A stretch of DNA of 64,000 nt from a virus (taxonomy: Duplodnaviria > Caudoviricetes). Positions 15,732 through 53,757 of this stretch are shown piece after piece. Location: the IMG/VR virus record IMGVR_UViG_3300012979_001162, positions 32,001 through 96,000 of that record. One strand, 5' to 3'. The notes beneath the pieces were generated by a model, which was given only the letters and a program-made list of their open reading frames with translations, ran no database searches and was not told the DNA's origin. Every line of letters starts with the position of its first letter. Position 1 is the first letter of the stretch. The position numbers and the translations under genes were made by a program.

Positions 15732-15812
15732 AATCATTTTGTACTGTAACTATTATATCACTTTATTAAAAATTGTCAACATACGTTTCTGTTAGTTTAC
15801 AATTTATTTACA
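15732..15812 (-). promoter_or_regulatory. Modular promoter: TGTAAA-N5-TGTAAA, 16 bp, TTGACA-17-TATAAT, operator motif
   Basis: Repeat 15796-15812; ACAGTACAAAATGATT 15732-15747. Confidence 0.8.
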
Positions 15813-15813
15813 A

Positions 15814-16242
15814 TTATCTAGGAATTGAACACTCCCAATACTTCTTGGTTACATAGACATCATATTCGTCTTCGTACTTAAACACAACTACTATGGTGTT
15901 TCCGGAGCCTGTCAAATAGTGACCATAATCTTCTGTATCACTCTCTGCCACACGCAATCTCTCCCTAACCCACTCTTGGATTTTTGCATTGTCTATATCT
16001 ATTGCATTGTCACTTGGAGGCATAAAGTGGAGAGGAAATTCAATATTACTAGAATTTAAATCGATCCCCTCAGGTTCATCTACAAAGACCTTTGTTCCAC
16101 AATTGGGACAGATAAGTTCTCTGCCACCGAAAACGCCGATATAAGTATCACCCTTTTCGTATTCAAGAAGTGTTCCACATTCGTTGCATCTTGCTCTGTA
16201 AATCTTGGGTAACTCCTCGTTCTCTTTAATTACTCTTATCAT
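15814..16242 (-). CDS. Hypothetical Zn-ribbon protein
   Basis: CNECG...CPNCG; GGAGG RBS. Confidence 0.6.
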   Translation of the reverse strand: MIRVIKENEELPKIYRARCNECGTLLEYEKGDTYIGVFGGRELICPNCGTKVFVDEPEGIDLNSSNIEFPLHFMPPSDNAIDIDNAKIQEWVRERLRVAESDTEDYGHYLTGSGNTIVVVFKYEDEYDVYVTKKYWECSIPR

Positions 16243-16388
16243 ACATTTTCCTCCATAAGTGTTTTAAGTTCTTTGAGAATATTCTCGTAGCTTCCTCTTG
16301 AAGATATCTACTTGCCGTTAAGATACAAGTCATAACCTCTATCTTCGCACAATTTGATAGTAAAATCGTGTACTGTTTTGTTTGCCAT
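16239..16388 (-). pseudogene. Small gene with in-frame TAG at codon 27
   Basis: MANKTVHDFTIKLCEDRGYDLYLNGK*ISSRGSYENILKELKTLMEENV; GGAGGAG RBS and ATGA overlap with next gene. Confidence 0.55.
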
Positions 16389-16391
16389 TGT

Positions 16392-18356
16392 TTACTCCTC
16401 CAACATTTTCATTAATTCATCTTCATATACAACCTTGACACCAAGACTCTGTGCTTTGGTAAGTTTAGACCCAGCCTTTTCACCACAGAAGAGCACATCG
16501 AGATTTTTGCTTACGCTACTTACAAACTTAGCACCCTTGGCCTCAAGTTTTTCTTTGAGTACATCTCTGCTCTGTGAGAAACTTCCGGTAATACAGAATT
16601 TCAAACCATTGAGAGGATTATCTACAACCTCTACCTTAGTCTGCACAACAAATCTCATCTCGGCAGCCAAATCAACGATTTCTGCCTCATTTTCCGTTAA
16701 GTACTTAGTGATTTCTGCAGAAGTTTTATCGCCAACACCTTCTAATTCACACCAATTATAGCCATCCTCAAATGCCTTATAAAACGCATTAAAATCACCG
16801 TTGAATGCATCTGCAAGAGTTTTAGATGCAGACTTGCCTACGCCATCTATACCGAGTGCAGTAATGAAATTTTCTAGCTTAACATCCCTTGAATTTTCAA
16901 TGGATTTTAGCAGAGTACTTACGGATTTTTCGCCCATACCTTCTAACCTAGTAAGTGATTGTTTGTGTTCGTTAAGGTGATAAATATCCTTATAAGTGTG
17001 CAGAAAATCGTGTGAAATTAGAGTTTCTAGCGTCTTCTCTGAGAGTCCTCGAATATCCATACAATTTTTGCTTACAAAATGAGTAAATTTAGCAAGGCTT
17101 CTAGAGGGACAGTGTTCGTTGGGGCAATACAATACGTTAGCCGTTCCGGTATTCTTGATAATAAGCTCCGTGCCACAGGAAGGGCATTTATCAATGATTG
17201 GTAGCTGATAATTCTCAGAGTTATAATCCAAATTAACCTCGATGGCAGGAATAACCATATTTCGTTTACTGCAACAAATTCGATCTCCAATTCTTAATTT
17301 TAAATTATTGATATAGTCCAAATTGTGTAGTGTGGCACGAGAAACCTGTGAATCTAAAATAGATATTGCGTCGAACAAACCAGTAGGCGTAACAATTCCG
17401 TTTCGCGATGTATTCCACTCTATCCCTCTAAATACCGTCTCAACTAAATCATCCTGTTCCTTCTTTGCGAGACCATAGTTATAGTGATGACTTGTTCTGC
17501 CAAGCGACATGCCATACGCATAGTCGTCATAACGAATAACGACTCCATCGCACGGAATACCATTATCATCTGCATATTTGTGAACCATACTGATAATGTC
17601 TGGGGTTTCCTCCATCCCCATATTACCAGTCTTTATGCGATAGATTACCTCGAACCCAAGACTTTCAAGAATGTTAAATCTTTCATTTAACGAATTAATA
17701 TCATCCATTCCTTCTATAACATCGAAGGCCATAAAATGTATATGTCTTTTTGCACACTCGCTACTATCAAGAAGTGAAAGACTTCCACTTGCTAGATTTC
17801 TACAATTAGCATATTTATCTTCTTCCGGCAAAGATGCGTTAATTTTATCAAGTTCATCTTTTAGTATAACGCTCTCTCCAACAACAGTAAAATCTTTGCC
17901 ATAATTAACTTTTAACGGAATATTAAAAGTTTTTGCATTATGGGTGATTAGGCTACCCTCAACTCCATTGCCACGAGTTGATGCTTCAATAAGCTCCGCC
18001 GTTACGCCGTCATATGATTTATAGATCAACTTGGTTGTCAATCCATCGCCTTTAATCATAAATAAAACATCTTTATCACCCGTAAACTTTACAACGTCTT
18101 CTACGGATTTCGTTTTTGCCAAACTCAATAAAGGAATGTTGTGTTGTACCTTAGGTAATGTATCTACCACCTCGTATCCAACAGATTGCGTTGGTGAATT
18201 GGCAAAATAACAATTCGTTTCTTTTTCGAGTTCTGCCAACTCATCAAAATATCGATCATATACATCGTCTGTAACCAATGGCTGGTGATTATAATAAGCA
18301 TCTCTGTATTGATTACATAATTCAATTAATTCTTTTATCTTCTTTATCTGCTTCAT
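16392..18356 (-). CDS. ligA: NAD-dependent DNA ligase
   Basis: Start MKQIKK; YY...D..YD, LLSLAK, KGDG, TRGNG, DGVVI, ATLHN, Zn finger, HhH, BRCT. Confidence 0.95.
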   Translation of the reverse strand: MKQIKKIKELIELCNQYRDAYYNHQPLVTDDVYDRYFDELAELEKETNCYFANSPTQSVGYEVVDTLPKVQHNIPLLSLAKTKSVEDVVKFTGDKDVLFMIKGDGLTTKLIYKSYDGVTAELIEASTRGNGVEGSLITHNAKTFNIPLKVNYGKDFTVVGESVILKDELDKINASLPEEDKYANCRNLASGSLSLLDSSECAKRHIHFMAFDVIEGMDDINSLNERFNILESLGFEVIYRIKTGNMGMEETPDIISMVHKYADDNGIPCDGVVIRYDDYAYGMSLGRTSHHYNYGLAKKEQDDLVETVFRGIEWNTSRNGIVTPTGLFDAISILDSQVSRATLHNLDYINNLKLRIGDRICCSKRNMVIPAIEVNLDYNSENYQLPIIDKCPSCGTELIIKNTGTANVLYCPNEHCPSRSLAKFTHFVSKNCMDIRGLSEKTLETLISHDFLHTYKDIYHLNEHKQSLTRLEGMGEKSVSTLLKSIENSRDVKLENFITALGIDGVGKSASKTLADAFNGDFNAFYKAFEDGYNWCELEGVGDKTSAEITKYLTENEAEIVDLAAEMRFVVQTKVEVVDNPLNGLKFCITGSFSQSRDVLKEKLEAKGAKFVSSVSKNLDVLFCGEKAGSKLTKAQSLGVKVVYEDELMKMLEE

Positions 18357-19080
18357 CTTCTTTGTACCTCCAAATAAATCCCCCAGAACTTTGTGATCCT
18401 CCACGACAACATCTGGTAATTCCGGTATAGCAAATACCTAAAGCGATTGAGGCATCCTTAGCACATTCCCACGCCTTGATAAAATTTCCGTCCATATCAT
18501 ATTGGAAAGCTATTCTTGCCCTAGGATTTTCTGAGCCAATATTCTGGTCTTTGTGAATGTTTGACATATGTTGTCTATATTCTTCGTTCTTCCATCTATC
18601 TTTTGCCAAATCGCTTAGTAGTTGCTTTGTTTCCTCTGAATGTTCTTTATTGAAGAATGGATTGTTTTCTCCTGCCAATTTGTGATTTCCATAATTGGGG
18701 TTCTTGCTTCCTATATATGTTTTGGCATGTTCGCTTCTGCGCATTCTTTCAGTATCACTTATAGGTATCCCCTCGGCTCCACCCTCTCCACCAGAAGAAA
18801 TGTTATAGCCATATAATTTGTTGTTTGATTTGTAATAAGCAATCAATTCCTTTTCTTTGTTTGCCGCCTCTTCTTTTGGTAAGGCGGTAAACACTATTTC
18901 ATGTTCAAAATTATCCCAACCATATTTTTGAATTGCACTGTTGAAATATTGATTATTTTTATATCCATTACCCTTATGCCATCGTTTTTCTGGTGGTTCT
19001 TGGCATGTCATCCCAATATATACTTTTCCACTTGGGCTGGTGTGCTTGTATACACAATAAAGTTTTTCTTCATTTCCCAT
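18322..19080 (-). CDS. GIY-YIG homing endonuclease with NUMOD3/NUMOD1-like domains
   Basis: CVYKHTSPSGKVYIG, GYNISSGG, NPFFNKEHSEETK, QYDMDGNFIK. Confidence 0.88.
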   Translation of the reverse strand: MGNEEKLYCVYKHTSPSGKVYIGMTCQEPPEKRWHKGNGYKNNQYFNSAIQKYGWDNFEHEIVFTALPKEEAANKEKELIAYYKSNNKLYGYNISSGGEGGAEGIPISDTERMRRSEHAKTYIGSKNPNYGNHKLAGENNPFFNKEHSEETKQLLSDLAKDRWKNEEYRQHMSNIHKDQNIGSENPRARIAFQYDMDGNFIKAWECAKDASIALGICYTGITRCCRGGSQSSGGFIWRYKEDEADKEDKRIN

Positions 19081-19159
19081 AAATCCTTTATAAATAATTT
19101 CTTCTTTTGTAGAATTTTTTACATTATTTATTAAACCTCCTTAATCATTCTGTACTGTA

Positions 19160-19612: not shown

Positions 19613-19763
19613 TCTCCTTCTCCTTAATATAATTTTCCATTTCGCCAATCAGACCCACGATACCCTGAAAATCTGATGCCAAGTTATCAAACCCAATCTT
19701 TTTAAAATACTCAGCCTTCTGTTGGTATTTTTCTTTCTGTTCGTTTAAATACTCAATTGTCAT
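19596..19763 (-). CDS. Small hypothetical protein (55 aa, not in ORF track)
   Basis: MTIEYLNEQKEKYQQKAEYFKKIGFDNL...; overlaps both neighbours. Confidence 0.5.
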   Translation of the reverse strand: MTIEYLNEQKEKYQQKAEYFKKIGFDNLASDFQGIVGLIGEMENYIKEKENDKSN

Positions 19764-20023: not shown

Positions 20024-20041
20024 ACGTTTTCCTTTCTGTAT

Positions 20042-20123
20042 AATCATTTTGTTGTGTATTTATTATATACCCACATCAAATTATTGTCAACACCTTTATG
20101 TAAACATTTACAATTTGTTAACA
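20042..20123 (-). promoter_or_regulatory. Modular promoter (WalR-type repeat, TTGACA/TATAAT, operator)
   Basis: TGTTAA-N5-TGTAAA 20107-20123; motif 20042-20057. Confidence 0.78.
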
Positions 20124-20149
20124 AATAAAGGCATAACCTAAGCTATACC

Positions 20150-20929
20150 CTATAATTTAGCAGTGTAAGTTAAACAGATAAAACCGGCGCCACTCAACAG
20201 CTTGCCCCACACCTCGTTGCCAACAACTACCTCGCTCACTATCGTATAAACCTCATTTCTTTTTACCGTAGTTACTATTGGATAATTCGTTCCTGCACCC
20301 TTTCTTACGTTTAATACATCTGTTGTAACCCTTACTAAATATCTTGTACTTTGCCCCAAGATTGATGCAACAAGATTCCTAAATTGGTCCATAGTTTTGC
20401 CGTGAATAGTAAACCAATGGTCGCAATCTGCGTGATTGGAAGCATACCCTTTCTTATGTGCTTCGGCGTGGCTTACTATTGATGATGGCTGTAAGTTAAA
20501 CTTCTTACAAAGCATAGCACAGTATTCCGCTGCTACTCTGTACACTTCGTTGAAATATTCTTCATTCCACAGATTATCTTCGCATAACTCAATCTGAATA
20601 TGACCAGTTGGATTGTAATTATAACTACCATACTTTCCACTGCCGCACCCCCAACAAGCGTAGTTGTATGGAAGTATGTTTGCCACTCTTACTTGATAGT
20701 TTTTATCATACCCTATAAAACTATGCACGCACATTTCACCAATCTTGCTGGACGGATTGTTCCAATGGTTGTTATACCAATTAATGCCACACTCGGATTT
20801 ACAGTCTACATACCTTTTTAAGTTCGGATTGTTTGCCCCGGTGCTATGTAGTACAATCCCTACTGGTGTCATAGGTTGCTTTGCTTTATAGCAATCATTT
20901 TTAGTTGCGTAAGCCGTAATAATGTCCAT
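20150..20929 (-). CDS. N-acetylmuramoyl-L-alanine amidase (Amidase_2) with SH3b domain
   Basis: IVLHST, VHSFIG, IELCED, SHAE...NHADC; LNVRKGAGTNY...WGKLLSGAG. Confidence 0.9.
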   Translation of the reverse strand: MDIITAYATKNDCYKAKQPMTPVGIVLHSTGANNPNLKRYVDCKSECGINWYNNHWNNPSSKIGEMCVHSFIGYDKNYQVRVANILPYNYACWGCGSGKYGSYNYNPTGHIQIELCEDNLWNEEYFNEVYRVAAEYCAMLCKKFNLQPSSIVSHAEAHKKGYASNHADCDHWFTIHGKTMDQFRNLVASILGQSTRYLVRVTTDVLNVRKGAGTNYPIVTTVKRNEVYTIVSEVVVGNEVWGKLLSGAGFICLTYTAKL

Positions 20930-20950
20930 AAAAAAAATCAACTCCTCTAT

Positions 20951-21019
20951 AATCATTTTGTATTGCTACAATTTAATTATAAAGGAATTGATTGTTTTTG
21001 TCAAATCATTTTGTATTGT
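20951..21019 (-). promoter_or_regulatory. Sigma-A promoter of the amidase flanked by two operator motifs
   Basis: TTGACA-17-TATAAT 20976-21004; motifs at 20951-20966 and 21004-21019. Confidence 0.75.
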
Positions 21020-21021
21020 AA

Positions 21022-21669
21022 TTACTTTTTGTCGGCAAACAACCAACGGTAGCAGTTCGCTTTAGTCAACCACGATATTCCAAAGAACGCAAGTGCGATA
21101 GTTTCAACGAGCCATACCCCGCCCCACCAATTAAAGATGCTAATCGGAATGATAGCCAAAAACGATACCACCATACCAATTCCACAGACGCGGAAAATCA
21201 CATTTCTTTTCTTTTTGTTTTCCGTCATATTGCCACTACTCTTTGTGAATAAAAAAATCGAGTTATAAGCAAGCAAACCAAAGAAACCAATAGCGCACAC
21301 ATTATGCAACATTCCACTTACAAACGGTGTGAGCTGAAATGTTCCAACATGAGTAAGTTCTGCCAATTCGGGCCATCTAACAACCAAGTCCTTTGTGCCA
21401 CACGAAAACAAGCAAATTCCGAAAGCAAATAGTCCGGCGATGGAACATATGATATCATCCTGTCTATCATATCCAGTGTAACTAAGCAAAAACATTCCTG
21501 CTGATCCAAGGATAATCATAAACGGAACAATACAAGTTGGAAGGTAATATGTTGCTGAGATAGAGTCTGGTAGACCATAACCGTAAATAAAGCTCATGCA
21601 TAGTACAATCAACGGCAATAACATACCGAGCTTTCCAATAGTACATCTAAGTTGTCTTGTGTCAATCAT
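21022..21669 (-). CDS. Multi-pass membrane protein (DUF998-like)
   Basis: About six hydrophobic segments; SISATYY, LHNVCA, E in last TM. Confidence 0.65.
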   Translation of the reverse strand: MIDTRQLRCTIGKLGMLLPLIVLCMSFIYGYGLPDSISATYYLPTCIVPFMIILGSAGMFLLSYTGYDRQDDIICSIAGLFAFGICLFSCGTKDLVVRWPELAELTHVGTFQLTPFVSGMLHNVCAIGFFGLLAYNSIFLFTKSSGNMTENKKKRNVIFRVCGIGMVVSFLAIIPISIFNWWGGVWLVETIALAFFGISWLTKANCYRWLFADKK

Positions 21670-21673
21670 AAAA

Positions 21674-23060: not shown

Positions 23061-23152
23061 TGGCTGGGAAGATGGGATTTGAACCCATGTAGGGAACTTC
23101 TTCCTTTGTGCCAGAGTCAAAGTCTGGTGCCTTACCGCTTGGCGACTTCCCA
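23061..23152 (-). tRNA. tRNA-Gln(UUG) with long variable arm
   Basis: TGGGAAG/CTTCCCA-GCCA, CCAGA-CTTTGAC-TCTGG, ATGGG-TTCAAAT-CCCAT; 22-nt variable region. Confidence 0.85.
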
Positions 23153-23240
23153 ATATCGAAGGGCGATTTTTAACTCTTTCGAGAGGCCAATCGCCGTAGC
23201 CTAGCAAATCGTATATACGATCAGCCGATTCATTATAAGA

Positions 23241-23336
23241 TGGCGGAAGACTTCGGACTTGAACCGAAACGCCGAATGACTTCGACTACTCATTGATTAG
23301 CAATCAACTGCCTTACCAAATTAGGCTTAGCCTTCC
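23241..23336 (-). tRNA. tRNA-Ser(GCU)
   Basis: GGAAGGC/GTCTTCC-GCCA, GTTGA-TTGCTAA-TCAAT, long variable arm, TTCAAGT T loop. Confidence 0.9.
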
Positions 23337-23357
23337 ATAAGTACTCCAACAACCGCT

Positions 23358-23879
23358 ATTGATAAGTAGCGATACGGTGATTTACCCTGATCCGCAACAG
23401 CAACACTACACAACCCGACCTTTTATGTGTCGTATATCGGGTAACGACTATCTCTGTTGTTGGCTTTATTGCACCATCCGTGAAAACGAATGGAGGAACC
23501 TTTACCACGACTAGTGGGTAGGCATTGTGGCTGGACTTACATCTCGGTGAGAAGGCCCTTCCACCCCAATCCGATAGGCTGTTCAACTCTCTCCATTTAC
23601 TACAGCTTCTTACAACGCTACTAAATACTTCGTTTGCAACCTCCATAATTAGCACTTCGTAGCACCTATCTCGCATATAAACCCTTGATTCGCTTATAAA
23701 GCAGGTTCAAGAAACCCTAACGAAATCGCACCGCAGGACGTAATACGAAATCTCAACTCTTCCCACACAAGGATGGGCGAGCAATGACTACTATCCCGAC
23801 ATACGAACCAGCTTTACACTTATTCGTGTCCGTTTTTGTTGTTTGCATAACCGCTCAGCACGGCATTGTGCTTATCAAT
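23358..23879 (-). ncRNA. Candidate large structured ncRNA (about 520 nt)
   Basis: 9-bp terminal helix ATTGATAAG/CTTATCAAT, many internal hairpins, H-type pseudoknot; no credible ORF; strand inferred from flanking tRNAs. Confidence 0.6.
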
Positions 23880-23889
23880 GTCTTGGCAC

Positions 23890-24420
23890 ATTTGAATAGT
23901 AGTAGTGTGAGAGAAAATTATGGGGAACATCCCCATACGAACGTAAAATTCGCATCCCAAGGTACTTCGTGTTGACGAAGCAACTACTAGCCTTGGAGAC
24001 GCTACGGCTCACTCTAAAAATCTCGTTTATTTCACAAGTTGTCATCTTGTTATTTCCACTACCAACGACAAAGATTTCTGCCGTTTCACAATTCCACCCT
24101 GGGACACTTACGCCGTAGCAGAGGTGCGGGTGGTCAATTTTTGACAACTTAATGTTGTCTACCAGTTGCATTTAGCAACGCAGGGGGTTTCGCCTATTTC
24201 GTTTTTCATAGCAAGCCTACATACGACCTCATCTTGCATTTCCTACCGGACTTCGGTTTACTGCAGACACCGAAGTGGACTCGTATGCTTCCAATGGCTT
24301 TCTTTCCAGCCTAGACCAAGTTCATCTTACACTTGGAGAATTTGTCATCATTTTATCCAACTTTTGATGATGACCCAAAAGCTCGTTGCGTTCATCTATG
24401 GGTTAGACTACTTGTCGCTA
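23890..24420 (-). ncRNA. Candidate large structured ncRNA (about 530 nt)
   Basis: Dense nested helices (GCTACGGC/GCCGTAGC, ACTTCGGT/ACCGAAGT, GTCATCAT/ATGATGAC, CCAAGG/CCTTGG); ends approximate. Confidence 0.6.
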
Positions 24421-24472
24421 TAACAATACCCTCCTCATAAGTATCTTATAGAAGCAACCCCAAATGGCGCTT

Positions 24473-24548
24473 TGGTGCAGAAGGTAAGATTCAAACTTAC
24501 GAATACTAGTTTTTTATCACTAGTGCTTTCCAACTAAGCTACTTCTGC
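24473..24548 (-). tRNA. tRNA-like element with 8-nt anticodon loop (GATAAAAA); possibly Ile-derived or pseudo-tRNA
   Basis: GCAGAAG/CTTCTGC-ACCA, D arm, CTAGT/ACTAG, GTAAG-TTTGAAT-CTTAC. Confidence 0.6.
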
Positions 24549-24857
24549 GCATGCCCCACACTTAACGTTAACAGGCTCCTACTGACCAGTGGGCTACGGC
24601 TATGACATTACTTCATTCTGCTTCGAAGGGGCATTTGTTATCCGCATTTCCTTACGGGCAAGACCGGCTTCAAACAAATGAGCTCTCAACTTCTCAAGAG
24701 TTTCTTTTAAATAATGGCTCGGCTCGTCACCCATTCCGTATGGGTCGCTTTATATGCCATTATGCCTTCTTACTTGCGCTCCATTTTCGTACATCGCTAT
24801 TCGACACGGTTGATACTCTTTTTTCATCAGTGGGATCACAACTTAACTAATCTGGTT

Positions 24858-24940
24858 TGGCAGGGGAGCGGCGACTCGAACACCGATAGCCTTTCGGCAC
24901 AGTTTTGGAGACTGCTGTCTTACCATTAGACGACTCCCCT
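24858..24940 (-). tRNA. tRNA-Trp(CCA) with extra variable stem-loop
   Basis: AGGGGAG/CTCCCCT-GCCA, GCAGT-CTCCAAA-ACTGT, variable GCC-GAAA-GGC, CGGTG-TTCGAGT-CGCCG. Confidence 0.85.
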
Positions 24941-25020
24941 ATGTAAGAGACTTCTAAAACCTACAAGGAAACTCCGTCTCGATGTTTTTTATACAGGAGG
25001 TACTCGTATGATGTAACGAG

Positions 25021-25097
25021 TGGTGATCACACTGGCATTCGAAGCCAGACTGGATGCGTTCTAAGCACATTGCCTCTACCTGTTGGGCTATGCGGTC
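25021..25097 (-). tRNA. tRNA-Leu(UAG) with short variable loop
   Basis: GACCGCA/TGTGATC-ACCA, ATGTG-CTTAGAA-CGCAT, 5-nt variable loop, CTGGC-TTCGAAT-GCCAG. Confidence 0.8.
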
Positions 25098-25108: not shown

Positions 25109-25822
25109 TCAAACTTGAATGCCATATACAGAAAACCACGTCTGATGTGATTTTCTATGTTTTGTTGATGGAGGTTCTTTGAGCATAGCAGAGATAAGCT
25201 CTTTTGTTTTGTTTACTCCGTACTCTCGTACGGATTTGTTGATAGTATTTATGCCTAATCCCAATTTTTGGGCCCACTGTTGTCCTGTTAATACTTCACT
25301 CTCAACTTCAATCCAATTGACCTTGCCTGCTCTTCTAGAATTTTCCTCCAACGGAATCCATCGACAGTTACTGGGGGAATAGTCTACGTCGGGATCAATT
25401 CTATCTATGGTTAGAAATTCTTCGTACCCATTGTTCAAAGCCCACTTTTCAAATTTACCAGGGTTATCCAACCACTCTTGACACACTTTAATACCCTTTT
25501 CCCCATACCACCTATAGTTTTTGTCATTTGGATTATAGCATCGAACAATGATGCCTCTGAAGATCTTACCAAGACGACTATTCTCCCATTTATGCCTATT
25601 AATAATGTACTCTCCGTTAGTTCTTAAGTGGGTGCATTTATTTGATAGTTTGCTTGGTGCAGAAACCCCACTATATGTAAATTCTGTTTCAAAACCACAT
25701 TCGTTGCATACACATTTATAAATTCGATGTCTGTACTTATCGGTTTTATCTGTTATATCTGCTATTGTATAGATTCCGTGCACTTCTCCAATGTGAGATC
25801 TTGGATCAAATTTTTCTACCAT
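25109..25822 (-). CDS. HNH-type homing endonuclease
   Basis: RCYNP...YG.KGIKVC.EW...LTIDRID...YSPSNCRW. Confidence 0.85.
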   Translation of the reverse strand: MVEKFDPRSHIGEVHGIYTIADITDKTDKYRHRIYKCVCNECGFETEFTYSGVSAPSKLSNKCTHLRTNGEYIINRHKWENSRLGKIFRGIIVRCYNPNDKNYRWYGEKGIKVCQEWLDNPGKFEKWALNNGYEEFLTIDRIDPDVDYSPSNCRWIPLEENSRRAGKVNWIEVESEVLTGQQWAQKLGLGINTINKSVREYGVNKTKELISAMLKEPPSTKHRKSHQTWFSVYGIQV

Positions 25823-25839: not shown

Positions 25840-25923
25840 AATCATGCTGTATTGTGTACTAATTATACCACAATCATTTTGTATTGTCAATATATTTCCG
25901 TAATCGTTTACAATCTATTTACA
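25840..25923 (-). promoter_or_regulatory. Modular promoter of the tRNA/ncRNA operon, operator inside the -35/-10 spacer
   Basis: Repeat 25907-25923; TTGACA-ATACAAAATGATTGTGG-TATAAT; second motif at 25840. Confidence 0.82.
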
Positions 25924-27480: not shown

Positions 27481-27561
27481 AATCATTTTGAACTGTAATT
27501 AGTATATCATACATTTTCCAATTGTCAAGGGGTTTATGTAATTGTTTACATTTCGTTTACA
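27481..27561 (-). promoter_or_regulatory. Modular promoter (WalR-type repeat, TTGACA/TATACT, operator)
   Basis: Repeat 27545-27561; motif 27481-27496. Confidence 0.78.
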
Positions 27562-27630: not shown

Positions 27631-30600
27631 TTATTCGATGGTGTAGGAGGTGAGCCAGATGTCCTCTCGGCTATAATCTTGTACCCAATTCTCTCCGTCC
27701 TTTTTCCACGCAGGCTTCTTCGTTGTACGGTAGTCAACAATCATTCCAGAAGAAAGAGGGTTGCTCTCGTAGTCTTTTTTCTTTAATTTTACGCTAACCG
27801 TCTGTCCATCATAGAGTCGGTACAGTGAGAGCCTAGGCGTGTACTTTGTATTGATATCCAAGATGACTGCCTTAGTAGGTTTGGTGGGATCGATATGCGA
27901 CACATACCCAAGCATTTCTTGTTCTGTTTGAATCTTGGTTAGTAATGGAATGTCTTGGTCGGGAATGCGATTACACAAGTCTGCAAGCATTGCATCCATA
28001 TGATCCTCGTCAAATTTAAACATCTTTTCAGTTTCAGAGACACAGTACTGGGTCAATATCTCCATAGGCAATGTGGTTTTTTCTTTCTTAACTTGTTTCT
28101 TTCCATGAAGAAGATTATATAAGTCAACAATCTTAAGTAATTTCAAAGAGCCACCAAACTCCTCTCGGAAGAAGTCGAGTTTTATGAGTATTTCTAACTG
28201 ACGTGAGTTCAGAGGTGACACATTGAGGAAATCAATAAAACTATTAAACTGAGTATCTTTCATATTATACAATGCTTCGGAGACATCTGCATTAAGATAC
28301 TTAATCGACTCAAGCCCCTTATAGATGCTATTCGTTGCCTTATCCATTTGATAGCCACTACGAGAATATCTAAACTTAGGAGGTTGAATTTTAATTCCTA
28401 CTTTATTTGCATACTTTGTAATGGCTACAATCTTATCCTCTTTGCCGGTGAAAGTATTGAAGGCTGCCGTTAAAAATTCAAGGGGATAATAGTGGCGCAA
28501 GTATCCACACACATAACCAATACAACTGTACGCATCGGAATGGTTCCAGCTAAATCCGTATGAGGACGCATCGAGAATAATCTGTAGGAATGGCTTAATA
28601 ACCTCTTGGCATCTTTCTTTAGTAATATCATAATGCGTTGACGAATACTCAATAAATCTACGCTCAATCTCAGGAAGAAGCTGTTCTGTACCTTTCTTCT
28701 TTGCAATACCACGACGAACATTATCGGATTCGGCACTAGAATATCCACAAAAATCTGTTAAGAAACGCATGATTGTCTCTTGCATACACACTCGTCCAGC
28801 TTCAGGAGCAAGAAAGTCATTCAGTTCCTTAAAACCATTATCATAGAACACACCGTCTGCTACTTCATCGCGATAACTTGCACAAGCTGGTCTCAATAAA
28901 CCATTGCCAAATGAGAACCACTTAATATAAGAAAAGTTCTTACTTTGTTCTCTTGCTTTGGCAACCACCGTATCAGACATAAATCTCTTGAGATAAGCCG
29001 CAGCGCTATCGGACTCCCACTGGAATATCATTGTAGTATCATCTCGAATGCTACGCCAAACTGCTTCATCCTCAAGGTCTACATTATCCGGAGTCAATCT
29101 ATCAATACCTACAAGTTTGCAACATTCATTAATTACACCAATGTTATCTAGCCCAAGGATATCAAGCTTGACATACATTTGGTCATCGAGGCCGTGCATA
29201 TCTAACATTGACACAGGATAATCAGATGTAGAAAGACTACACAGCCCAACATCTGCCTCAATTTCTTTATCACTTACGAGAACTCCACTTGGGTGAGAGC
29301 CGATAGAAACGATAGTTCCAGAAACAATGTCTACATACTTAAATACTTCTGGATATTTTTCTTTCCATTTATCATCAATGGTTCCATCAATGTTTACTGC
29401 ATCGCTAATCTGCTGTGCTTCATCAAGAGAAATATTAAGAGCTCTACACACGTCCTTGATTGCACCCTTTGTTGCAATGGTGTTGAATGTAATAATCTCA
29501 CTCGTCTTGATATGAGGCAAATTCATTCTATCATGCAACAGGAAGTACTTAATCTTTTCTCTATCCTTTGAACAGTAGTCTGTATCTATATCAGCATTGG
29601 TAACACGCCCGGGGTTCATAAAACGGAAGAAGTTTAAATCAAACTTCAAACTGTCCATCTGAGTAATACCAAGCGCATAAGCAATAAGGCTGCCAGACAC
29701 AGATCCACGTCCGTAACCACACTGAATATCGTTTTCTCGCTCCCACTCTCTAAGGTAAGTTTCAAGTAGCATAAAGTCAATGGCTCCAACCTTTTTATAA
29801 ACCTCATACTCTTCTCTGATTTGCTTAACCACTTGGGCGCTCGGATAGCGAGACTTTAGATGTGGATGTTTCTTATACGCCTCGTTAATCTTCGTCTTAA
29901 ATGTCTTATCGGGATCGTCATAAATATGAGGATACTTTGTCTGTCTATCTACCTCAAAAGTTTCAACCATATCTGCAATTTTGTTAGTATTTTCAATCGC
30001 TTCAAGATAAATTTCCTTAGGCAGTGAATCTTGCTTTTCATATGTTTCACACAATTCGTCATAAGACTTGAAGGTCAAATCCCACCCCTCTTCATCATCA
30101 AAGCGAATATTCTTACTAAGCTGAAGAATCTTTCGTCCTTCGGCATGCTCCTCATTTAGGGAGTGTGTATCCGTACACGCTACAAGTTGCAAACCATACG
30201 TCTTACTAAGATTATATAATTTTTGGTTATACACTTTCTGGTCCGAAACATTATGGTGCTGAATCTCTAAGAAGCATCTATTCTTGTTCTTCATTATAAA
30301 ATCAATAAACTGCTTTTGAATGTTATCAGACGCACGATTCAAGATGCCGCCAAGGCAAGCGGTAGAAATGATTACATTGTCAGATGTGTTGAGCAGATCA
30401 GCAAACTCGATCCTCGGAGCATAGTAGTAATGTCCATCCTTACGATTAAACGACTTACTCGCAAGTCTATTAATTTCCTTTACTCCATCAAAGTTTCTTG
30501 CGATAAGCAAACAGTGCCAATTATCACGAAGTTTAATAGGATTACCATCCTCATCAACATCAATCTTTTCAGTTATGTAAAACTCTGCGGCATGGATATA

Positions 30601-32753: not shown

Positions 32754-32833
32754 AATCATTTTGTTGTGTATAGAATAGCACCAAAGTTCAAGTTTGTCAA
32801 GATACTTCGGTGCTAATTTACAATTTATTTACA
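32754..32833 (-). promoter_or_regulatory. Modular promoter (WalR-type repeat, TTGACA/TATTCT, operator)
   Basis: Repeat 32817-32833; motif 32754-32769. Confidence 0.78.
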
Positions 32834-40808: not shown

Positions 40809-40890
40809 AATCATTTTGTTGTGTAATAAGTATAGCACCAAAAGTAGATTTTGTCAATATCCTTTGGTGCTAGTTTACAAATTATTTACA
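40809..40890 (-). promoter_or_regulatory. Modular promoter (WalR-type repeat, TTGACA/TATACT, operator)
   Basis: Repeat 40874-40890; motif 40809-40824. Confidence 0.78.
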
Positions 40891-40898
40891 ATTATGAA

Positions 40899-41948
40899 TT
40901 AGATTTCGTCGTCTAACTCATCATCTAATTCTTTTATATCTTTAATGTTCTCTTGAACAATTTCATCCCATATTTTCTTGCCGTGATCCGAGGGTGAATC
41001 CTTGCTTCCGATTGTAATACAATCTCTATAGTCAAACCATTTGATATTCACTTGGCGCATTACGGCACATCTACGCAGCGTATCCGCATTGTCTTTAACC
41101 CATTCTAACTTCAACCCTTCGTCAAACATTAGTACAATGTTCTTTACATTCAGACCGAGCATCAGTTTTGCCTGATACTCGCTAATGCTATGAGAGCCAA
41201 CCGCTACACAATTTCTGATACCCATCGTGTGAAGTTGCATACAGAACTTCTCTGCCTCACCGACATATAAAGTGTCAGCACCGTACAAATATTGATAACT
41301 CTCAGAATAGTTATACAAACACCTAGATATATTTGCGACATAAGGGTCGAGATAAAGATACTTACAATCATATTCTCCTATCTCGTCCTCGTTCAAGCGT
41401 CCTTTGATAGCAACTATACTTCCGTGCTCATCACGCCAAGGAAAGACTATTCTATTCGTGATTGTATCAAACGATATGTTGTAAAACTTTTGAGTTTCAA
41501 GACTAATACCATCTCGAAGAAATCTCAAACTTCCATGTCTTTTATATTGATTAAGAATGTCGTCATCGTAAGTTTTGAGTTCTGCCTGGGCATTCTTTCC
41601 TATATTCTGATATATTCCTCCGAACAAAAGCTTACGTTGTGGAGGTCTCCAGTTGCTATCAAGTCCTAAAAGTTCTCTTGCTTTATTTAATACTTCCTTG
41701 AATTCTACGGATTTCTCAGCACAAATATAAGAGAATATATCCTTGTGGACCGAAGTCACGAAGTCATGGACATTTAAAAATTCGTTATCTTGCAGTCTAA
41801 TGCTAATATTTCGCCCACCCTCTTCAGAGCGAGCGAATCTAATTGATCCATTGCGCATAAGGATGTGAGCGAATCCAAATGACTCCAACAATGGAATGAT
41901 TGTTTCTTGTGGAGACTCAAGCATTAGTTTTTTAATATCTCCTATCAC
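40899..41948 (-). CDS. DNA primase (TOPRIM; YorJ-like)
   Basis: RIVFP...IKGR, KYLY, LYN, GEAEK, FDEG, KDSPSD. Confidence 0.85.
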   Translation of the reverse strand: MIGDIKKLMLESPQETIIPLLESFGFAHILMRNGSIRFARSEEGGRNISIRLQDNEFLNVHDFVTSVHKDIFSYICAEKSVEFKEVLNKARELLGLDSNWRPPQRKLLFGGIYQNIGKNAQAELKTYDDDILNQYKRHGSLRFLRDGISLETQKFYNISFDTITNRIVFPWRDEHGSIVAIKGRLNEDEIGEYDCKYLYLDPYVANISRCLYNYSESYQYLYGADTLYVGEAEKFCMQLHTMGIRNCVAVGSHSISEYQAKLMLGLNVKNIVLMFDEGLKLEWVKDNADTLRRCAVMRQVNIKWFDYRDCITIGSKDSPSDHGKKIWDEIVQENIKDIKELDDELDDEI

Positions 41949-43232: not shown

Positions 43233-43314
43233 AATCATTTTGTTGTGTAATAATAATAGTACCATTTCCTCAATTTGTCAAGGTATTTGGTAGTTTGTTT
43301 ACAATTTCTTTACA
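43233..43314 (-). promoter_or_regulatory. Modular promoter (WalR-type repeat, TTGACA/TATTAT, operator)
   Basis: Repeat 43298-43314; motif 43233-43248. Confidence 0.78.
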
Positions 43315-49175: not shown

Positions 49176-49197
49176 AAATTAGCCCTCCTTTCGTGGT

Positions 49198-49287
49198 AAT
49201 CATTTTGTTCCCTTAGGTTACTCATATAATACCACAAAAGAAGGTGTTTGTCAATACTTTATGTTATTTATTTACATTTTGTTTACA
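49198..49287 (-). promoter_or_regulatory. Modular promoter of the replication operon
   Basis: Repeat 49271-49287, 16 bp, TTGACA-17-TATTAT; partial motif at 49198. Confidence 0.75.
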
Positions 49288-49523: not shown

Positions 49524-49671
49524 CAATTTCTCTTCCCCTTTGTCAATCAATATATTGTTATGTACATTATACACCGAACACCCATTCGGATTCAATGCAT
49601 AATTTATGGTAAAATTATGAATAATGTGACTTTTTTGCCTTCATCATACATAATATGGCGTTTTTGGAATA

Positions 49672-50661
49672 TCATTCTTCCGTTTCTTTAATACCATATT
49701 GTTCATATAGGTGTCGCTGGGGCGCGAATTCTCCAAAATATTTCACCTCAGCGTTAAGCCGGGCACGAATAGCATCATCTTTGTTTTCAAAATAACCAAG
49801 ATGCATGTGTTTATTTTCCGCTTTAATATATGCCCTCCACTTACTATGTTTTTTGCTCCATCCCACTCCAATAAATCCACTTTTGTTGTTTTTATATAAA
49901 CTAATATTTTTCGCATTTTGTTCTACTGTTGCCGGTCTTAAATTTGATTTTTTGTTATTTAGCGGATTTCGATCTATGTGATCGCAATATTTACCTTTAA
50001 TCAAATAATGCATAGCAATACTTCTATTTAAAGTGCTATCGCGAGCCTCTAACCTGTGATAGTCATTGTTTTTATTTGAGGTCTCGCTCCAACAGTATTT
50101 TTTAATTTTATCGTAGTCATCAAGATCGAAATAAAATTCTCTATTTGTATTAGATGTCCACCCTATGCCGTATTCTCCACTTAAATCATACTTATTATAT
50201 TTCTTCATTGTTTCCGACGCCCTTTCTGATTGGAAACAGCCACAAGACAGTGTGTGCCCACATTGTAAATGAGATGCTCTTACAATAACATTATTATTCC
50301 CACACTCGCACTCACACAACCATTGCGGCATATGAGCTCCCTTATTATTTATATAATCATCTACACGTTTAACTACTGTTAACCTACTACTCTCAAATCC
50401 GTGCTCCTTCATAACCCAACCCGTCATATCAATAAAATTGGCGTTGCTTGCTCTTTCTTTTTGTAAACAACCACAAGATTGTGTTGTGCCATTTTTTAAA
50501 CGGTATCCAACAACAAGCGTTTTGTTGTGATTTTCGCATGAGCATTCGCATAACCATCGTGGCATATGGGCTCCTTTTGGAGAAACATAATCTTCCACTT
50601 GTTGAACAACCGTAAGCCTTCCAAAAACTCTTCCCGTTAAATCTTCTTTAACTTTAACCAT
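49672..50661 (-). CDS. HNH-AP2 homing endonuclease, paralogue of 13495-14262 with duplicated N-terminal module
   Basis: Two DxTG...SCGC modules; DHIDRNPLNNKKSNLR; AP2 domain. Confidence 0.88.
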   Translation of the reverse strand: MVKVKEDLTGRVFGRLTVVQQVEDYVSPKGAHMPRWLCECSCENHNKTLVVGYRLKNGTTQSCGCLQKERASNANFIDMTGWVMKEHGFESSRLTVVKRVDDYINNKGAHMPQWLCECECGNNNVIVRASHLQCGHTLSCGCFQSERASETMKKYNKYDLSGEYGIGWTSNTNREFYFDLDDYDKIKKYCWSETSNKNNDYHRLEARDSTLNRSIAMHYLIKGKYCDHIDRNPLNNKKSNLRPATVEQNAKNISLYKNNKSGFIGVGWSKKHSKWRAYIKAENKHMHLGYFENKDDAIRARLNAEVKYFGEFAPQRHLYEQYGIKETEE

Positions 50662-50721
50662 ATAAAACCTCCTTAATCATTTTGTATTGTTTAGTACAAT
50701 GAATAAAGGATTACATATCCC

Positions 50722-51672
50722 CTATTCAAAATACATAGAAAATTTATCTAACAATATTTGAGCATAAAACTCTTCCGACAAAATATCGTACCTTCTCGCC
50801 AACGACTCTGCTTGTTTTGTTTTAGTAAACTCTCTAAACTCTAACCCTGTTTCTTTTACACCTTGTTGAAGATGGTATAACAAACCACTATTTTGAAGGC
50901 TTCCACTCGTTACTCTGATCCCAAGGTCTTTAGATATTAATATCAACCTTCTTTGCACCCAGCGATAACGACGCTCTTGATCTTCTTTGCTATCTTGGTT
51001 GTCATTATCAGATAAACTATTACATCTTGCCTTATATAATCCAAGACTTCTGACCTTGGCAATACGATTAGTTTCCCCAAATGAAATTAATTCATCTTCT
51101 GTAAACCCTTGTTTCAACATATCGTAAGCACTCTCTGTGATGTCAATGATTTTACCACTCTTAAAATATACCTTTAAGTCGCTATGACTTACTTGATTCC
51201 ATTGCATAAAAGTCAGTTCTTTCAAAAGATTTCCTCCAACGCCATAGAACAGTAACCACACTATGCATTTGTCGGTCCAGTTGAGTAGTTGCTCTATAAT
51301 ATCCTCGACGTCATCTTTGCTCAAAATCAGGCTCTTCTGCTTTTCGGTATCAACAACCTCATTCAACATATCTTTCGTCATTTCCTCATAAGTGTTTGCA
51401 ACCTCTATGTTTTTCTTAAATGCAAACCATCTTGCGGCGTGTTTCAAAACCAAGTTGTTATTCTGCAACGTCACAACAGAGATAGCGTGGACGCTTTTAT
51501 ACATTTCCAACGCCTCTTCTGTTGTGAAGTCATAAAACGGTTTGTTGAACTTATGCTCAAATTCAACTGCTCTATTAAGCGTTGCTCTTGTGGTAGTCAT
51601 TATGATAACTTTGCTTCTTTGATACTCCTGTAGAAAGTCTTCTATTTCTACTTCGCTTGTATACACATACAT
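50722..51672 (-). CDS. MrpR (YopR)-like repressor with inactive tyrosine-recombinase fold
   Basis: Segments EHKFNKPFYDFT, LLNWTDKCIVWLLFYGVGG and VTSGSLQNSG resemble SPbeta YopR as recalled; no R, HxxR or Y catalytic set. Confidence 0.75.
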   Translation of the reverse strand: MYVYTSEVEIEDFLQEYQRSKVIIMTTTRATLNRAVEFEHKFNKPFYDFTTEEALEMYKSVHAISVVTLQNNNLVLKHAARWFAFKKNIEVANTYEEMTKDMLNEVVDTEKQKSLILSKDDVEDIIEQLLNWTDKCIVWLLFYGVGGNLLKELTFMQWNQVSHSDLKVYFKSGKIIDITESAYDMLKQGFTEDELISFGETNRIAKVRSLGLYKARCNSLSDNDNQDSKEDQERRYRWVQRRLILISKDLGIRVTSGSLQNSGLLYHLQQGVKETGLEFREFTKTKQAESLARRYDILSEEFYAQILLDKFSMYFE

Positions 51673-51704
51673 CGACTCCTTATTTTTTTATCGTTTTTAT
51701 TATA

Positions 51705-51735
51705 ACACTACAAAATGATGAACGCAATCATTTTG
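51705..51735 (-). promoter_or_regulatory. Inverted pair of operator motifs over the repressor promoter
   Basis: ACAAAATGAT-GAACGCA-ATCATTTTGT; TTGCGT-17-TATAAT with TG extension. Confidence 0.7.
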
Positions 51736-51738
51736 TTT

Positions 51739-52725
51739 TTAAAAAAGATTGTCAAGAACTCCCTTTGTTTTCTCTCTATCCTCATTAAATACGTCCAAAT
51801 AACGCATAGTTACTCCGATTCCGCTATGACCAAGTTGTTGCGCAATCGCCTTTACTGGAACACCCGCCTTCGCCAAAGCACAAGCTGAAGATGCGCGAAG
51901 CTTATGGAATGTAACTCTTTTAATTCCCGCCCAATCACAATACTTCTCCAACATATCATTAGCATCCCATACAGATAATCTATTATAACCTTTGGTAAGA
52001 AACAATGCCTGAGAATCAACGTCTTTATACTCATTTGCTCTAAACTCAACATATTCTCTCAACATATTCATCGTATTCTCACCCATAGGAATTTCGCGCA
52101 CCTTCTGTCTCTTCTCAACAACCTGAATAACACTATTCTCAAAATCAATGTCCTCCACGTTGATGTTAACAATTGCACTCACACGAAGAGCGGTAGCAAG
52201 AGCAAGACTAATAATAGTCCTGTCTCTCATTCGAAACACTTCGTTCTCATTCTTATCAATCGCCTTGAACAACTTGCTAATCTCCGCCTTTGTTAAATAC
52301 GTTACTTTATGTTCCGTATTATTCTTAGGTCTATTCACAACGCCCATAGGATTTTTATCAATATATCCCCTCTTAAGACACCAATCAAAAAACGTATTCA
52401 AAGAGCTCCAACGAGACTGAAGGATATCATCACCCATTCTCTTAATTCCTCTTGCCGTTTCTTTGGTTTCTAGAGAAATCATATAGTTTTCCACGTCGGA
52501 CGGCGTAATATGTTTGTAGAAATCCTCTGCGACATCACCATCACATACAAATCTTGCAAAATGCAACACGTTGTTGATATACACGTTTACCGTCGTATAA
52601 GACTTTCTATTTGCTCTCATTGAAGTACAATATTCACCAATAATTTTCGGCATCCCCTTCAATTTTTCCTTCATCTTTTCATAAAATTGAGTTTCTTTTT
52701 CCAACCTTCCAGCTATGTTATTCAT
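51739..52725 (-). CDS. Tyrosine recombinase (XerC/D-like), catalytic residues intact
   Basis: TALRVS, K, HKLR, LGH, MRY; N-terminal SAM-like domain. Confidence 0.92.
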   Translation of the reverse strand: MNNIAGRLEKETQFYEKMKEKLKGMPKIIGEYCTSMRANRKSYTTVNVYINNVLHFARFVCDGDVAEDFYKHITPSDVENYMISLETKETARGIKRMGDDILQSRWSSLNTFFDWCLKRGYIDKNPMGVVNRPKNNTEHKVTYLTKAEISKLFKAIDKNENEVFRMRDRTIISLALATALRVSAIVNINVEDIDFENSVIQVVEKRQKVREIPMGENTMNMLREYVEFRANEYKDVDSQALFLTKGYNRLSVWDANDMLEKYCDWAGIKRVTFHKLRASSACALAKAGVPVKAIAQQLGHSGIGVTMRYLDVFNEDREKTKGVLDNLF

Positions 52726-52737
52726 AATAACCTCCTA

Positions 52738-53665
52738 TTATTTTTTAATTTTATGTCTTGTGATATATTTACGCCAAATTATAGTTGCCACAATCCAAAT
52801 AATCCAATTGCCCTTAAAAATCGTTGCGATTGCCATAACAACAATCCACAAAATAGTGGCCTCGTCGTTTTCTAAGCTATTTGGATGATCGTACCTTCTG
52901 TACCGCTCTTCAAAGCTTTCTTTTGGCGGCTGATTTTTTGCTTTTTCTTGCTCTCGCTCTTCGTCCCGCTTTTTTATCTCATCCAAGAACTCATTCAATT
53001 CCTTCTCTCGTTCTTCCGGCGTAAGATTTTTATTTCTATGGTACTCTGCAAGCCACTCTTCCTTGGTTTGCCCGGGCCATTCTCTAATCACCGTGCCACC
53101 TCCTTATACCGCCATGCTTGTAGTCATCTGCCTTCTTGCTTTACGCAATTCTTTCTTCTGCTCATGTTGTCTCCAGAAGTCGTGTTCTTCACATCTGGTG
53201 AATGCATCACACTGTCTACCATGCTTACACAGACATCCGTGCTGTTTCATTGTCTTGACAGTCATAGCGGTTTTATGATATCTACACATCCCAACCGCTC
53301 TATTTTTACTAATCGTGCTCCCATATAGACCTGGGAGCAATTCCGTCTGATTTACATCCATTATAACATAACCTCCCTTCAATCATTTTGATTCGTCATT
53401 AAATTTCATCAACGCAACTTGCCGCTTCTTCTGCTGCCTCAATTGCATTGCCCATAGATTCTATTGCCTCATTCATCGCATCAATTGCTTCTTCTGCATC
53501 CATTGCCCTTTGGCTGCTTTGAAGATTCTCTGGGATATTATTAAAATAGTCATCTTCTTCAGAGCAAATATTCTCAAGTACATCCTTTAGTTCTTCACCT
53601 TGCGCCGCCCAATCTTCTGCCTTCTTAACCCATTCCATCAATTCCTTGCGTCTATTCTTGTTCAT
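52738..53665 (-). CDS. Three small hypothetical genes (52738-53091 with C-terminal TM, 53104-53382, 53399-53665)
   Basis: RBS-bearing ORFs. Confidence 0.6.
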
Positions 53666-53695
53666 AATAAAATTTCTCCTTTTAATTTGTATCTT

Positions 53696-53757
53696 AATTA
53701 TACATTATTTTTTGGTGTTGTCAATAATTTTGTTGTGTATTTTACAAAACGTTTACA
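53696..53757 (-). promoter_or_regulatory. Modular promoter with operator variant overlapping -35
   Basis: Repeat 53741-53757; ACACAACAAAATTATT runs into TTGACA; TATAAT 17 bp downstream. Confidence 0.75.

Follow-up and report, generated by a model that had tools for sequence, protein, structure and literature searches.

The 64,000-nt stretch analyzed here (the window) comprises bases 32001-96000 of the 162,648-bp IMG/VR record IMGVR_UViG_3300012979_001162, a Caudoviricetes phage genome whose record completeness is 95% and whose G+C content is 38%. It encodes replication proteins (DnaE, a primase, a DnaB-like helicase, a Sak4-like annealing protein, an NAD-dependent ligase, and a RecJ-like DHH protein), functions in nucleotide metabolism and translation (NrdD, guanylate kinase, dUTPase, and four tRNAs), many homing endonucleases, two tyrosine recombinases, a large serine recombinase, and a TubR/TubZ pair. 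Ten promoters in this region carry a tandem repeat of the form TGTWAH-N5-TGTWAH, here called the box, ahead of the -35 element. This box is genuine and under selection, a cis-element of the standard promoter module in a clade of large uncultured gut phages, and we consider below which protein might read it.

Results

A pattern search of the window yielded exactly nine perfect TGTWAH-N5-TGTWAH repeats, all on the minus strand and all at the positions listed in an earlier reading of this DNA made from its letters alone (the sequence-only reading). Only 0.76 would be expected; the highest number in any shuffled sequence was four, and none of 100 shuffles reached nine. The tenth site, at 2777 on the plus strand, has one mismatch as that reading had stated (TTTTAA for TGTWAH). 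The invariant distance that it had proposed was also found: in 10 of 10 cases, 16 bp separate the box from a TTGACA that is perfect each time, and the composite box-N16-TTGACA, with at most two mismatches, occurs 10 times in the window versus 0.24 expected. The -10 hexamers of these promoters (TATAAT, TATACT, TATTAT, or TATTCT) have zero to two mismatches and follow a 16-17-bp spacer, often with an upstream TG. The whole 162.6-kb genome contains 13 box promoters among approximately 19 strong sigma-A-type promoters, and five boxes start 1-2 nt from the stop codon of the preceding gene.

On the plus strand, the box TTTTAACAAATTGTAAA (2777..2793) precedes a core promoter at 2810..2858, with the -35 TTGACA at 2810-2815, a 17-bp spacer, and the -10 TATAAT at 2833-2838. 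A second motif, ACAAAATGATT, which we call the leader motif, lies at 2848-2858, and the promoter drives a DUF4379/NUMOD1 homing-endonuclease-like gene (2945-4183). The other nine promoters are all on the minus strand. Operons downstream of the box promoters are those for replication, nucleotide metabolism, and tRNAs, in agreement with the sequence-only reading. The box TGTAAATAAATTGTAAA at 15796..15812 serves the core promoter at 15732..15779 (-35, 15774-15779; 16-bp spacer; -10 TATAAT, 15752-15757; ACAAAATGATT, 15732-15742), whose operon begins with two conserved genes of unknown function and extends as far as the genes for guanylate kinase, NrdD, and dUTPase. The NAD-dependent DNA ligase (16392-18404) and a homing endonuclease are among the products of the operon behind the promoter at 20042..20090 (-35, 20085-20090; -10 TATAAT, 20062-20067; ACAAAATGATT, 20042-20052), and the proximal half of its box, TGTTAACAAATTGTAAA (20107..20123), runs into the palindrome TGTAAATGTTTACA (20099-20112). 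The operon with an HNH endonuclease and the tRNA cluster (23061-25097) is preceded by the box TGTAAATAGATTGTAAA (25907..25923), whose proximal half runs into TGTAAACGATTACG (25899-25912), a sequence resembling a catabolite-responsive element (cre). Its core promoter at 25862..25890 (-35, 25885-25890; -10 TATAAT, 25862-25867) contains ACAAAATGATT inside the spacer (25872-25882). At 27545..27561, the proximal half of the box TGTAAACGAAATGTAAA also runs into a cre-like sequence, TGTAAACAATTACA (27537-27550), upstream of a core promoter at 27481..27528 (-35, 27523-27528; 16-bp spacer; -10 TATACT, 27501-27506) in which the leader motif takes the form TCAAAATGATT (27481-27491).

The operon that leads to DnaE (27631-30798) starts from the core promoter at 32754..32800 (-35, 32795-32800; -10 TATTCT, 32772-32777; ACAAAATGATT, 32754-32764), and its perfect box at 32817..32833 is again TGTAAATAAATTGTAAA. 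Another perfect box, TGTAAATAATTTGTAAA (40874..40890), lies upstream of the core promoter at 40809..40857 (-35, 40852-40857; -10 TATACT, 40829-40834; ACAAAATGATT, 40809-40819). The box TGTAAAGAAATTGTAAA (43298..43314) starts 1 nt past the stop codon of the DnaB-like helicase and belongs to the promoter at 43233..43281 (-35, 43276-43281; -10 TATTAT, 43253-43258; ACAAAATGATT, 43233-43243), which leads to the primase (40899-41948). Transcription of the Sak4-like annealing protein and the DnaB-like helicase is assigned to the promoter at 49198..49254 (-35, 49249-49254; -10 TATTAT, 49226-49231; ACAAAATGATT, 49198-49208), whose box, TGTAAACAAAATGTAAA (49271..49287), is perfect. The last perfect box, TGTAAACGTTTTGTAAA, is at 53741..53757. 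Its core promoter occupies 53697..53733 (-35, 53719-53724; 16-bp spacer; -10 TATAAT, 53697-53702), with a variant leader-type motif, ACAAAATTATT (53723-53733), that lies between box and -35 and overlaps the latter.

The box is an exact match to the published consensus for the response regulator WalR (YycF), TGTWAH-N5-TGTWAH (PMC4168254, PMC9210968), as had been claimed. It also has the format of OmpR-family sites: two 6-bp half-sites in the same orientation, repeated with an 11-bp period and separated by an A/T-rich segment. No OmpR-family gene is present in the window, as the sequence-only reading had noted, and this extends to the whole genome, in which neither PF00486 (Trans_reg_C) nor PF00072 (Response_reg) has a match; PF00486 likewise has none in five relatives. 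As far as letters can tell, the single most likely binder, although we hold to it only tentatively, would be a host OmpR-family response regulator, with WalR foremost. Several other binding-site formats, those of Spo0A (TGTCGAA), TnrA/GlnR (TGTNA-N7-TNACA), CRP/FNR, IHF, and LytTR, do not fit the box sequence.

For a view of the box that does not depend on its own consensus, we used 85 promoters, drawn from five genomes with -35, -10, and leader motif as the sole criteria. In these, 55 of 85 have a box with at most two mismatches, and the logo reads AAT-TGTAAA-yAAAw-TGTAAA-y, or two tandem 11-bp units AAW-TGTAAA-Y. The 17 box positions hold approximately 10 bits of information, compared with approximately 3.6 bits for the 16-bp gap and less than 1 bit for the 14 bp further upstream. 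The most informative single box position is G at -56 (62/85); G at -67 (54/85) stands, within its half-site, behind T-68 only. The A/T-rich N5 between the half-sites is conserved too, as in pho boxes.

The gap had been described as varying freely. It is a variable segment, as stated, yet it is not wholly free: the 85 promoters show weak conservation (A at -49, C at -45, an A-rich stretch from -42 to -40, and tA at -37/-36), and in 19 of 71 box promoters from seven genomes the gap completes a cre-like palindrome. In these 19, TGWAANCGNTNWCA, with at most one mismatch, starts at the proximal TGTAAA, versus approximately 0.55 expected, and the feature is kept within orthologous promoter groups. 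TGTAAA could thus be read by CcpA, another LacI-family protein, or a non-OmpR host regulator, with phage transcription coupled to carbon status through sites like cre or the clostridial cre_var (TGTAAA-Yx-TTTACA). Clostridial CcpA binds a TGTAAA/TTTACA core with variable spacing (PMC5263246), and the half-site word is the same. However, cre sites are inverted repeats whereas the conserved pair in the phage box is direct, the inverted arm is missing in 73% of box promoters, and the distal TGTAAA is left unexplained. Neither TGWAANCGNTNWCA nor a TGTAAA-Yx-TTTACA inverted repeat is what defines the box. Because the conserved pair is direct, CcpA explains a subset of boxes at most, and we regard it as an improbable general reader. 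A CcpA-type input on such a subset, including the minus-strand sites at 25899-25912, 27537-27550, and 20099-20112, is possible.

In Bacillus subtilis, the Pho box bound by PhoP consists of at least four TT(A/T/C)ACA repeats with an 11-bp period that lie between approximately -20 and -60 and replace the -35 element. The phage promoters have two repeats only, read TTTACA on the template strand, and their -35 is intact.

AAA tracts in the logo are centered near -64, -53, and -42 and are in helical phase. Phased upstream A-tracts of B. subtilis sigma-A promoters, as Helmann in 1995 and Aiyar and colleagues in 1998 are said to have described, act through the C-terminal domain of the RNA polymerase alpha subunit (alpha-CTD). 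Might the box therefore need no extra factor, being an extended UP-like or curved-DNA element that host alpha-CTDs read for maximal promoter strength? Like UP elements and the phased A-tracts of strong sigma-A promoters, it is A/T-rich, helically phased, and fixed to the -35, a rigid anchoring as for direct contact with RNA polymerase, and the remaining promoter elements are consensus, as would suit strong expression. To our knowledge, UP-element consensus sequences have no conserved G/C, whereas here a near-invariant G stands in each conserved TGT, the one at -56 being conserved above every other box position and the one at -67 surpassed in its half-site by T-68 alone. UP elements have an A/T-only consensus between -38 and -59 and are read in the minor groove, whereas this element reaches -68, past their usual range. 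The third phased position keeps the A-tract only, without TGT, which shows the two features to be separable, and related cultured Firmicute phages lack the box. The conserved G of each TGT indicates that the site is sequence-specific and does not consist of A-tracts alone, and we consider the UP-like account distinctly unlikely.

Conservation was assessed in six related genomes (G001-G005 and G007, the present phage being G000), all from uncultured phages of 120-175 kb that share 54-104 of approximately 230 proteins with this phage at median identities of 42%-63%. All six have the box at the same +16 offset, and TGTAAA is unchanged across the seven genomes. Of 53 perfect WalR-type boxes in five of the genomes, 47 have a -35 exactly 16 bp downstream; the remaining six are at or below the composition background of approximately 2.5 per genome. 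Over 338 candidate promoters, boxes with at most two mismatches occur at an offset of 16 in 56 cases and at 15 and 17 in one case each, with small echoes at offsets 5 and 27 that come from the 11-bp period. The same holds more widely in IMG/VR, where TGTAAA-N5-TGTAAA-N16-TTGACA is present in at least 115 stretches, versus 25 for an offset of 15 and 14 for an offset of 17. Among the matches listed, many are IMG/VR contigs of 65-175 kb with several copies, most of which share the rest of the promoter module, and several unrelated-looking contigs have one or two copies of the composite only. In the five nearest cultured relatives (pCD1602_4, TR-TP1, 2S-4, PBC2, and LIBA6276, phages of Clostridioides difficile, Thomasclavelia, and Bacillus), the composite occurs at control level only. 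Multi-copy use of the box is a property of one phage clade.

Since the box offset is fixed while the spacer between -35 and -10 varies (17 bp in 40 box promoters, 16 bp in 15, and 18 bp in one), the box is anchored to the -35 and not to the -10 or the start site, and the fixed gap places it on a fixed face of the helix. With the -10 hexamer taken as -12 to -7, and with start sites that are predicted, the box spans -68 to -52 and is centered at -60, or at -59 where the spacer is 16 bp. The sequence-only reading had placed the center near -61 and called this class I activator geometry, which a center approximately 60 bp upstream of the predicted start bears out. The promoter grammar of the clade is the box, 16 bp, the -35, 16-17 bp, the -10, and then a putative clade-specific operator.

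The last of these elements is the leader motif. ACAAAATGATT has 41 exact copies in the genome versus 0.3 expected; it is asymmetric, with the extended form WWACAnWACAAAATGATT, every copy has the orientation of local transcription, and 33 are intergenic. Approximately 19 of the 41 lie 12-31 nt ahead of a start codon, and copies are found in the gaps between a stop codon and the next ribosome-binding site. At sigma-A promoters, the motif takes one of three fixed registers: at +4 to +14 from the predicted start, inside the spacer between -35 and -10 (TTGACA-aaa-CAAAATGATT-atga-TATAAT), or ending in the TT of TTGACA. Its sequence differs by subclade, being ACAAAATGATT in G000-G004, ACAAAGTGATT in G005 (28 copies), and ACAAAATGAAW in G007. 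A box that is constant in seven genomes next to a leader motif that drifts by subclade is the pattern that would be expected if a conserved host factor read the box and a co-evolving phage factor read the leader motif.

ACAAAATGATT is probably an operator for a phage repressor, and it may also have a role at the RNA level. Stoperators of L5-type mycobacteriophages are multi-copy motifs, co-oriented with transcription, that occur in intergenic gaps and over promoters. Like these elements of the cluster A phages, ACAAAATGATT is asymmetric and is present in dozens of co-oriented copies in short intergenic gaps and promoters; it differs in phage group, in sequence, and in that many copies are 12-31 nt before a start codon. 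Because TubRZ and recombinases are present, a phage repressor acting in a plasmid-prophage lifestyle would fit the motif. Three ACAAAATGATT copies also occur at L161:19770-20000 (genome 19.77-20.0 kb), in approximately 220 nt of non-coding, apparently structured DNA that separates an upstream promoter without a box from a homing-endonuclease-like gene.

The distribution of the box within the genome bears on whether a phage protein might read it. A block of approximately 26 kb of small genes has no box promoters, and these begin only downstream of it, a layout like that of middle promoters. Strong promoters without the box drive homing endonucleases, the endolysin (-35 at window 20999-21004, minus strand), and TubRZ. 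The box might accordingly be bound by a phage-encoded protein of unrecognized fold, made early or injected with the DNA, with which the clade itself would activate or modulate its standard promoters. Only one clade uses the box in multiple copies, and it is absent from the closest cultured relatives; there are dozens of small unannotated early genes, several small proteins are conserved in all relatives, and promoters without the box could express such a factor first. However, the genes behind those promoters include no obvious activator, and we found no OmpR-type domain, receiver domain, or sigma factor in the phage, nor an OmpR-type domain in five relatives. Among the proteins examined, the only DNA-binding matches in Pfam/PHROG are an HU-like core protein, the TubR-like winged helix, a small ribbon-helix-helix (RHH) protein, and a protein with a DUF6291 helix-turn-helix (HTH), and of these only the HU-like protein is among the small conserved proteins. 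Two conserved early proteins were modeled by AlphaFold (window 15061-15402 and L164:8637-8933) with a predicted local distance difference test score (pLDDT) of 79-81; neither a winged helix nor another DNA-binding fold is seen in these models, which match nothing in the PDB at E <= 0.001. Queries of the ESM Atlas with two proteins, those of window 15061-15402 and 15399-15704, likewise yielded no usable match. Finally, the box has stayed unchanged at protein identities of 42%-63% while the other, presumably phage-read, motif has drifted. We judge a phage-encoded binder to be unlikely, although it retains some weight.

Two specific phage candidates were set aside. A hint of Sigma70_r2 turned out to be a DUF7666 protein, and TubR shows low conservation (35%-48% identity), while tubR is preceded by repeats of its own, which are of the GTGCA type.

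As to the host, the promoter and Shine-Dalgarno grammar of the phage is of the Firmicutes type, with sigma-A promoters. Its DnaE shares 44%-48% identity with the DnaE proteins of large siphoviruses that infect Clostridioides, Thomasclavelia, and Bacillus. For the endolysin (Amidase_2 + SH3_3), the nearest counterparts belong to phages of Oscillospiraceae, Evtepia, Blautia, and Faecalibacterium. No near-identical phage emerged when 8 kb of the window was compared by megablast with cultured phages, and blastn of one promoter against phages gave chance matches only. Several studies of bovine-gut metagenomes supplied the public DNA runs in which parts of the window occur; there are no RNA runs among the listed public runs that contain such parts. 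Because of the sigma-A and Shine-Dalgarno grammar, the endolysin relatives, and the bovine-gut runs, the host is probably an uncultured gut Firmicute. Among genome contigs, the full promoter module has one match, a 165.6-kb contig binned in a Paludibacteraceae faecal metagenome-assembled genome. We do not take Paludibacteraceae (Bacteroidota) to be the host, as this contig is probably a mis-binned phage and the promoter grammar is not that of Bacteroidota.

Discussion

A host OmpR-family binder is favored because the site has the format of that family and the WalR consensus, the phage has no OmpR-type gene, and the box is unchanged while the leader motif drifts. In Staphylococcus aureus, WalR sites upstream of the -35 activate transcription (PMC10746227), and WalRK is described as present in all Firmicutes (PMC9210968). 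The box resembles the WalR/YycF/VicR sites of Bacillota in its exact consensus, direct hexamers, 11-bp period, and position upstream of the -35 (PMC4168254, PMC10746227, PMC9210968). It departs from them in being fixed 16 bp from a perfect -35 on operons other than those of the cell wall, and its seventh base is Y, whereas Streptococcus mutans VicR prefers A.

How might such a regulator act? In the likeliest mechanism, a head-to-tail dimer of a host winged-helix response regulator of the OmpR/PhoB type would occupy the two TGTAAA half-sites. WalR is the best sequence match, and it is the family member whose activity during growth of Firmicutes is known. An alpha-CTD of RNA polymerase, bound at the A-rich patch (-42 to -40) beside sigma region 4, would be the contact of this dimer. 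Sigma-A promoters of the replication, nucleotide, and tRNA operons, strong in themselves, would thereby receive a class I-type boost. A conserved upstream enhancer site would then be joined in one module with the leader motif, a clade-specific operator that probably serves a phage repressor. We infer the identity of the binder, its contact with the alpha-CTD, and activation rather than another effect. In that event, lytic expression may be tied to host growth. It is conceivable, if somewhat unlikely, that this clade of large gut and rumen phages has made the site of WalRK, the host's essential growth and cell-wall sensor, a fixed class I element of its standard promoter, such that lytic transcription is gated or boosted by host growth state; a dozen or more sites per replicating genome might also titrate WalR from its cell-wall regulon.

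Several observations weigh against WalR or a relative as the reader. The core promoters are already consensus, with a perfect TTGACA and a -10 with zero to two mismatches, so that an activator should be unnecessary. S. aureus WalR-activated promoters for which both the site and the -35 are marked have a gap of 2-11 bp and a non-consensus -35 (Table S4, PMC10746227), unlike the 16 bp to a perfect -35 found here. The genes downstream are those of replication, nucleotide metabolism, tRNAs, and homing endonucleases, and not of cell-wall metabolism. The clade-restricted distribution fits a clade-specific phage protein equally well, the phased A-tracts at -64, -53, and -42 resemble UP-like elements, and TGTAAA is also the half-site of CcpA cre and cre_var sequences, with 27% of boxes running into a cre-like palindrome of 14 bp. 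Non-phage occurrences of the composite show no cell-wall theme: those listed in a metagenome scan precede CorA, Fur, Hsp20, ABC-F, and an unknown secreted protein. In that scan, among the 126 matches listed (120 stretches), 50 belong to the phage family and the others form 47 clusters, 20 of them with a good -10.

One bacterial chromosomal promoter, at L226:2964-3002 (minus strand), has the box-N16-TTGACA composite plus extra GTAAA repeats. It lies approximately 270 nt upstream of a gene for a 415-aa signal-peptide protein with no Pfam match, and identical copies of it are present in many human-gut metagenome contigs of up to 467 kb.

By its sequence, the box is a tandem site of the OmpR/PhoB type and, by its position, a class I site. 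It is not assignable to the WalR regulon: binding is only predicted, the regulon content does not fit, and the gap is unlike known cases. More generally, TGTAAA direct repeats in AT-rich phage DNA are not assignable to WalR by consensus alone because CcpA, PhoP, and alpha-CTD sites share the word.

Comparison with other systems shows both precedents and differences. Like class I sites such as that of CRP at -61.5 in lac, the box is centered near -60 on one helix face and leaves room for an alpha-CTD before the -35; unlike activator-dependent class I promoters, in which the core is sub-optimal, the core here is already consensus. The box shares with PhoB pho boxes the 7+4-bp tandem units and the A/T-rich minor-groove segment but, unlike pho boxes, which replace the -35, it leaves that element in place.

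Phages that use host response-regulator sites are already known. The early promoters of phi29 reportedly carry Spo0A boxes, with repression as the result (work ascribed to Meijer and colleagues in 2005), and cyanophage pstS and phoA are said to have PhoB pho boxes (Zeng and Chisholm, in 2012). As in these phages, the cis-elements described here match the site of a host two-component regulator that the phage does not encode. Those cases concern few promoters or auxiliary metabolic genes, whereas here approximately two thirds of the clade's strong promoters have the site at one rigid position, and it is this rigid, clade-wide upstream box on most strong promoters that is new. If a host response regulator does read the box, this clade would be the first in which phages have wired the majority of their promoters to a host two-component system. 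In the known cases only a few genes are involved. Such wiring would let gut phages sense host growth. Whatever the binder, the promoters of an abundant family of uncultured phages now have a precisely defined grammar, which should aid annotation, the prediction of host and lifestyle, and reporter design.

Additional features of the genome

The TubR/TubZ pair is part of a maintenance module at window 4215-7856, which consists of a 49-aa RHH/HicB-like gene on the minus strand and, on the plus strand, a TubR-like winged-helix gene and a gene for the tubulin TubZ. Divergent promoters without the box transcribe the RHH/HicB-like gene and TubR/TubZ, and a gene for a 660-aa serine recombinase comes next. 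Such a module is suggestive of a plasmid-prophage lifestyle or of one assisted by partition. At window 50722-52725 on the minus strand, inside the replication arm, two tyrosine-recombinase (integrase-family) genes lie side by side.

Outside the window, L163:16880-18500 (genome ~112.9-114.5 kb) is approximately 1.6 kb of non-coding, C/A-rich DNA with three copies each of the short iterons GGTTATTGT and GCAATAAC. The two divergent arms flank it, and the box promoter of a DUF6291-HTH gene lies just downstream; the region is a candidate replication origin or control region. An HU/IHF-family (Bac_DNA_binding) protein encoded at L164:16143-16463 (genome 132143-132463) is kept in six of six relatives and recalls TF1 of SPO1.

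The load of free-standing homing endonucleases, which include HNH, GIY-YIG-like, LAGLIDADG, and DUF4379 types, is unusually high. In the window they are found at 2945-4183, 13495-14316, 18322-19080, 25109-25822, 30795-31748, and 49672-50661, and elsewhere in the genome at 20024-21337, 147429-148406, and 152263-153585. Several have their own promoter of the family type, and in two of these the leader motif is inside the spacer. The phage also has a gene for a Thg1-like tRNA-His guanylyltransferase, at L164:1836-2672.

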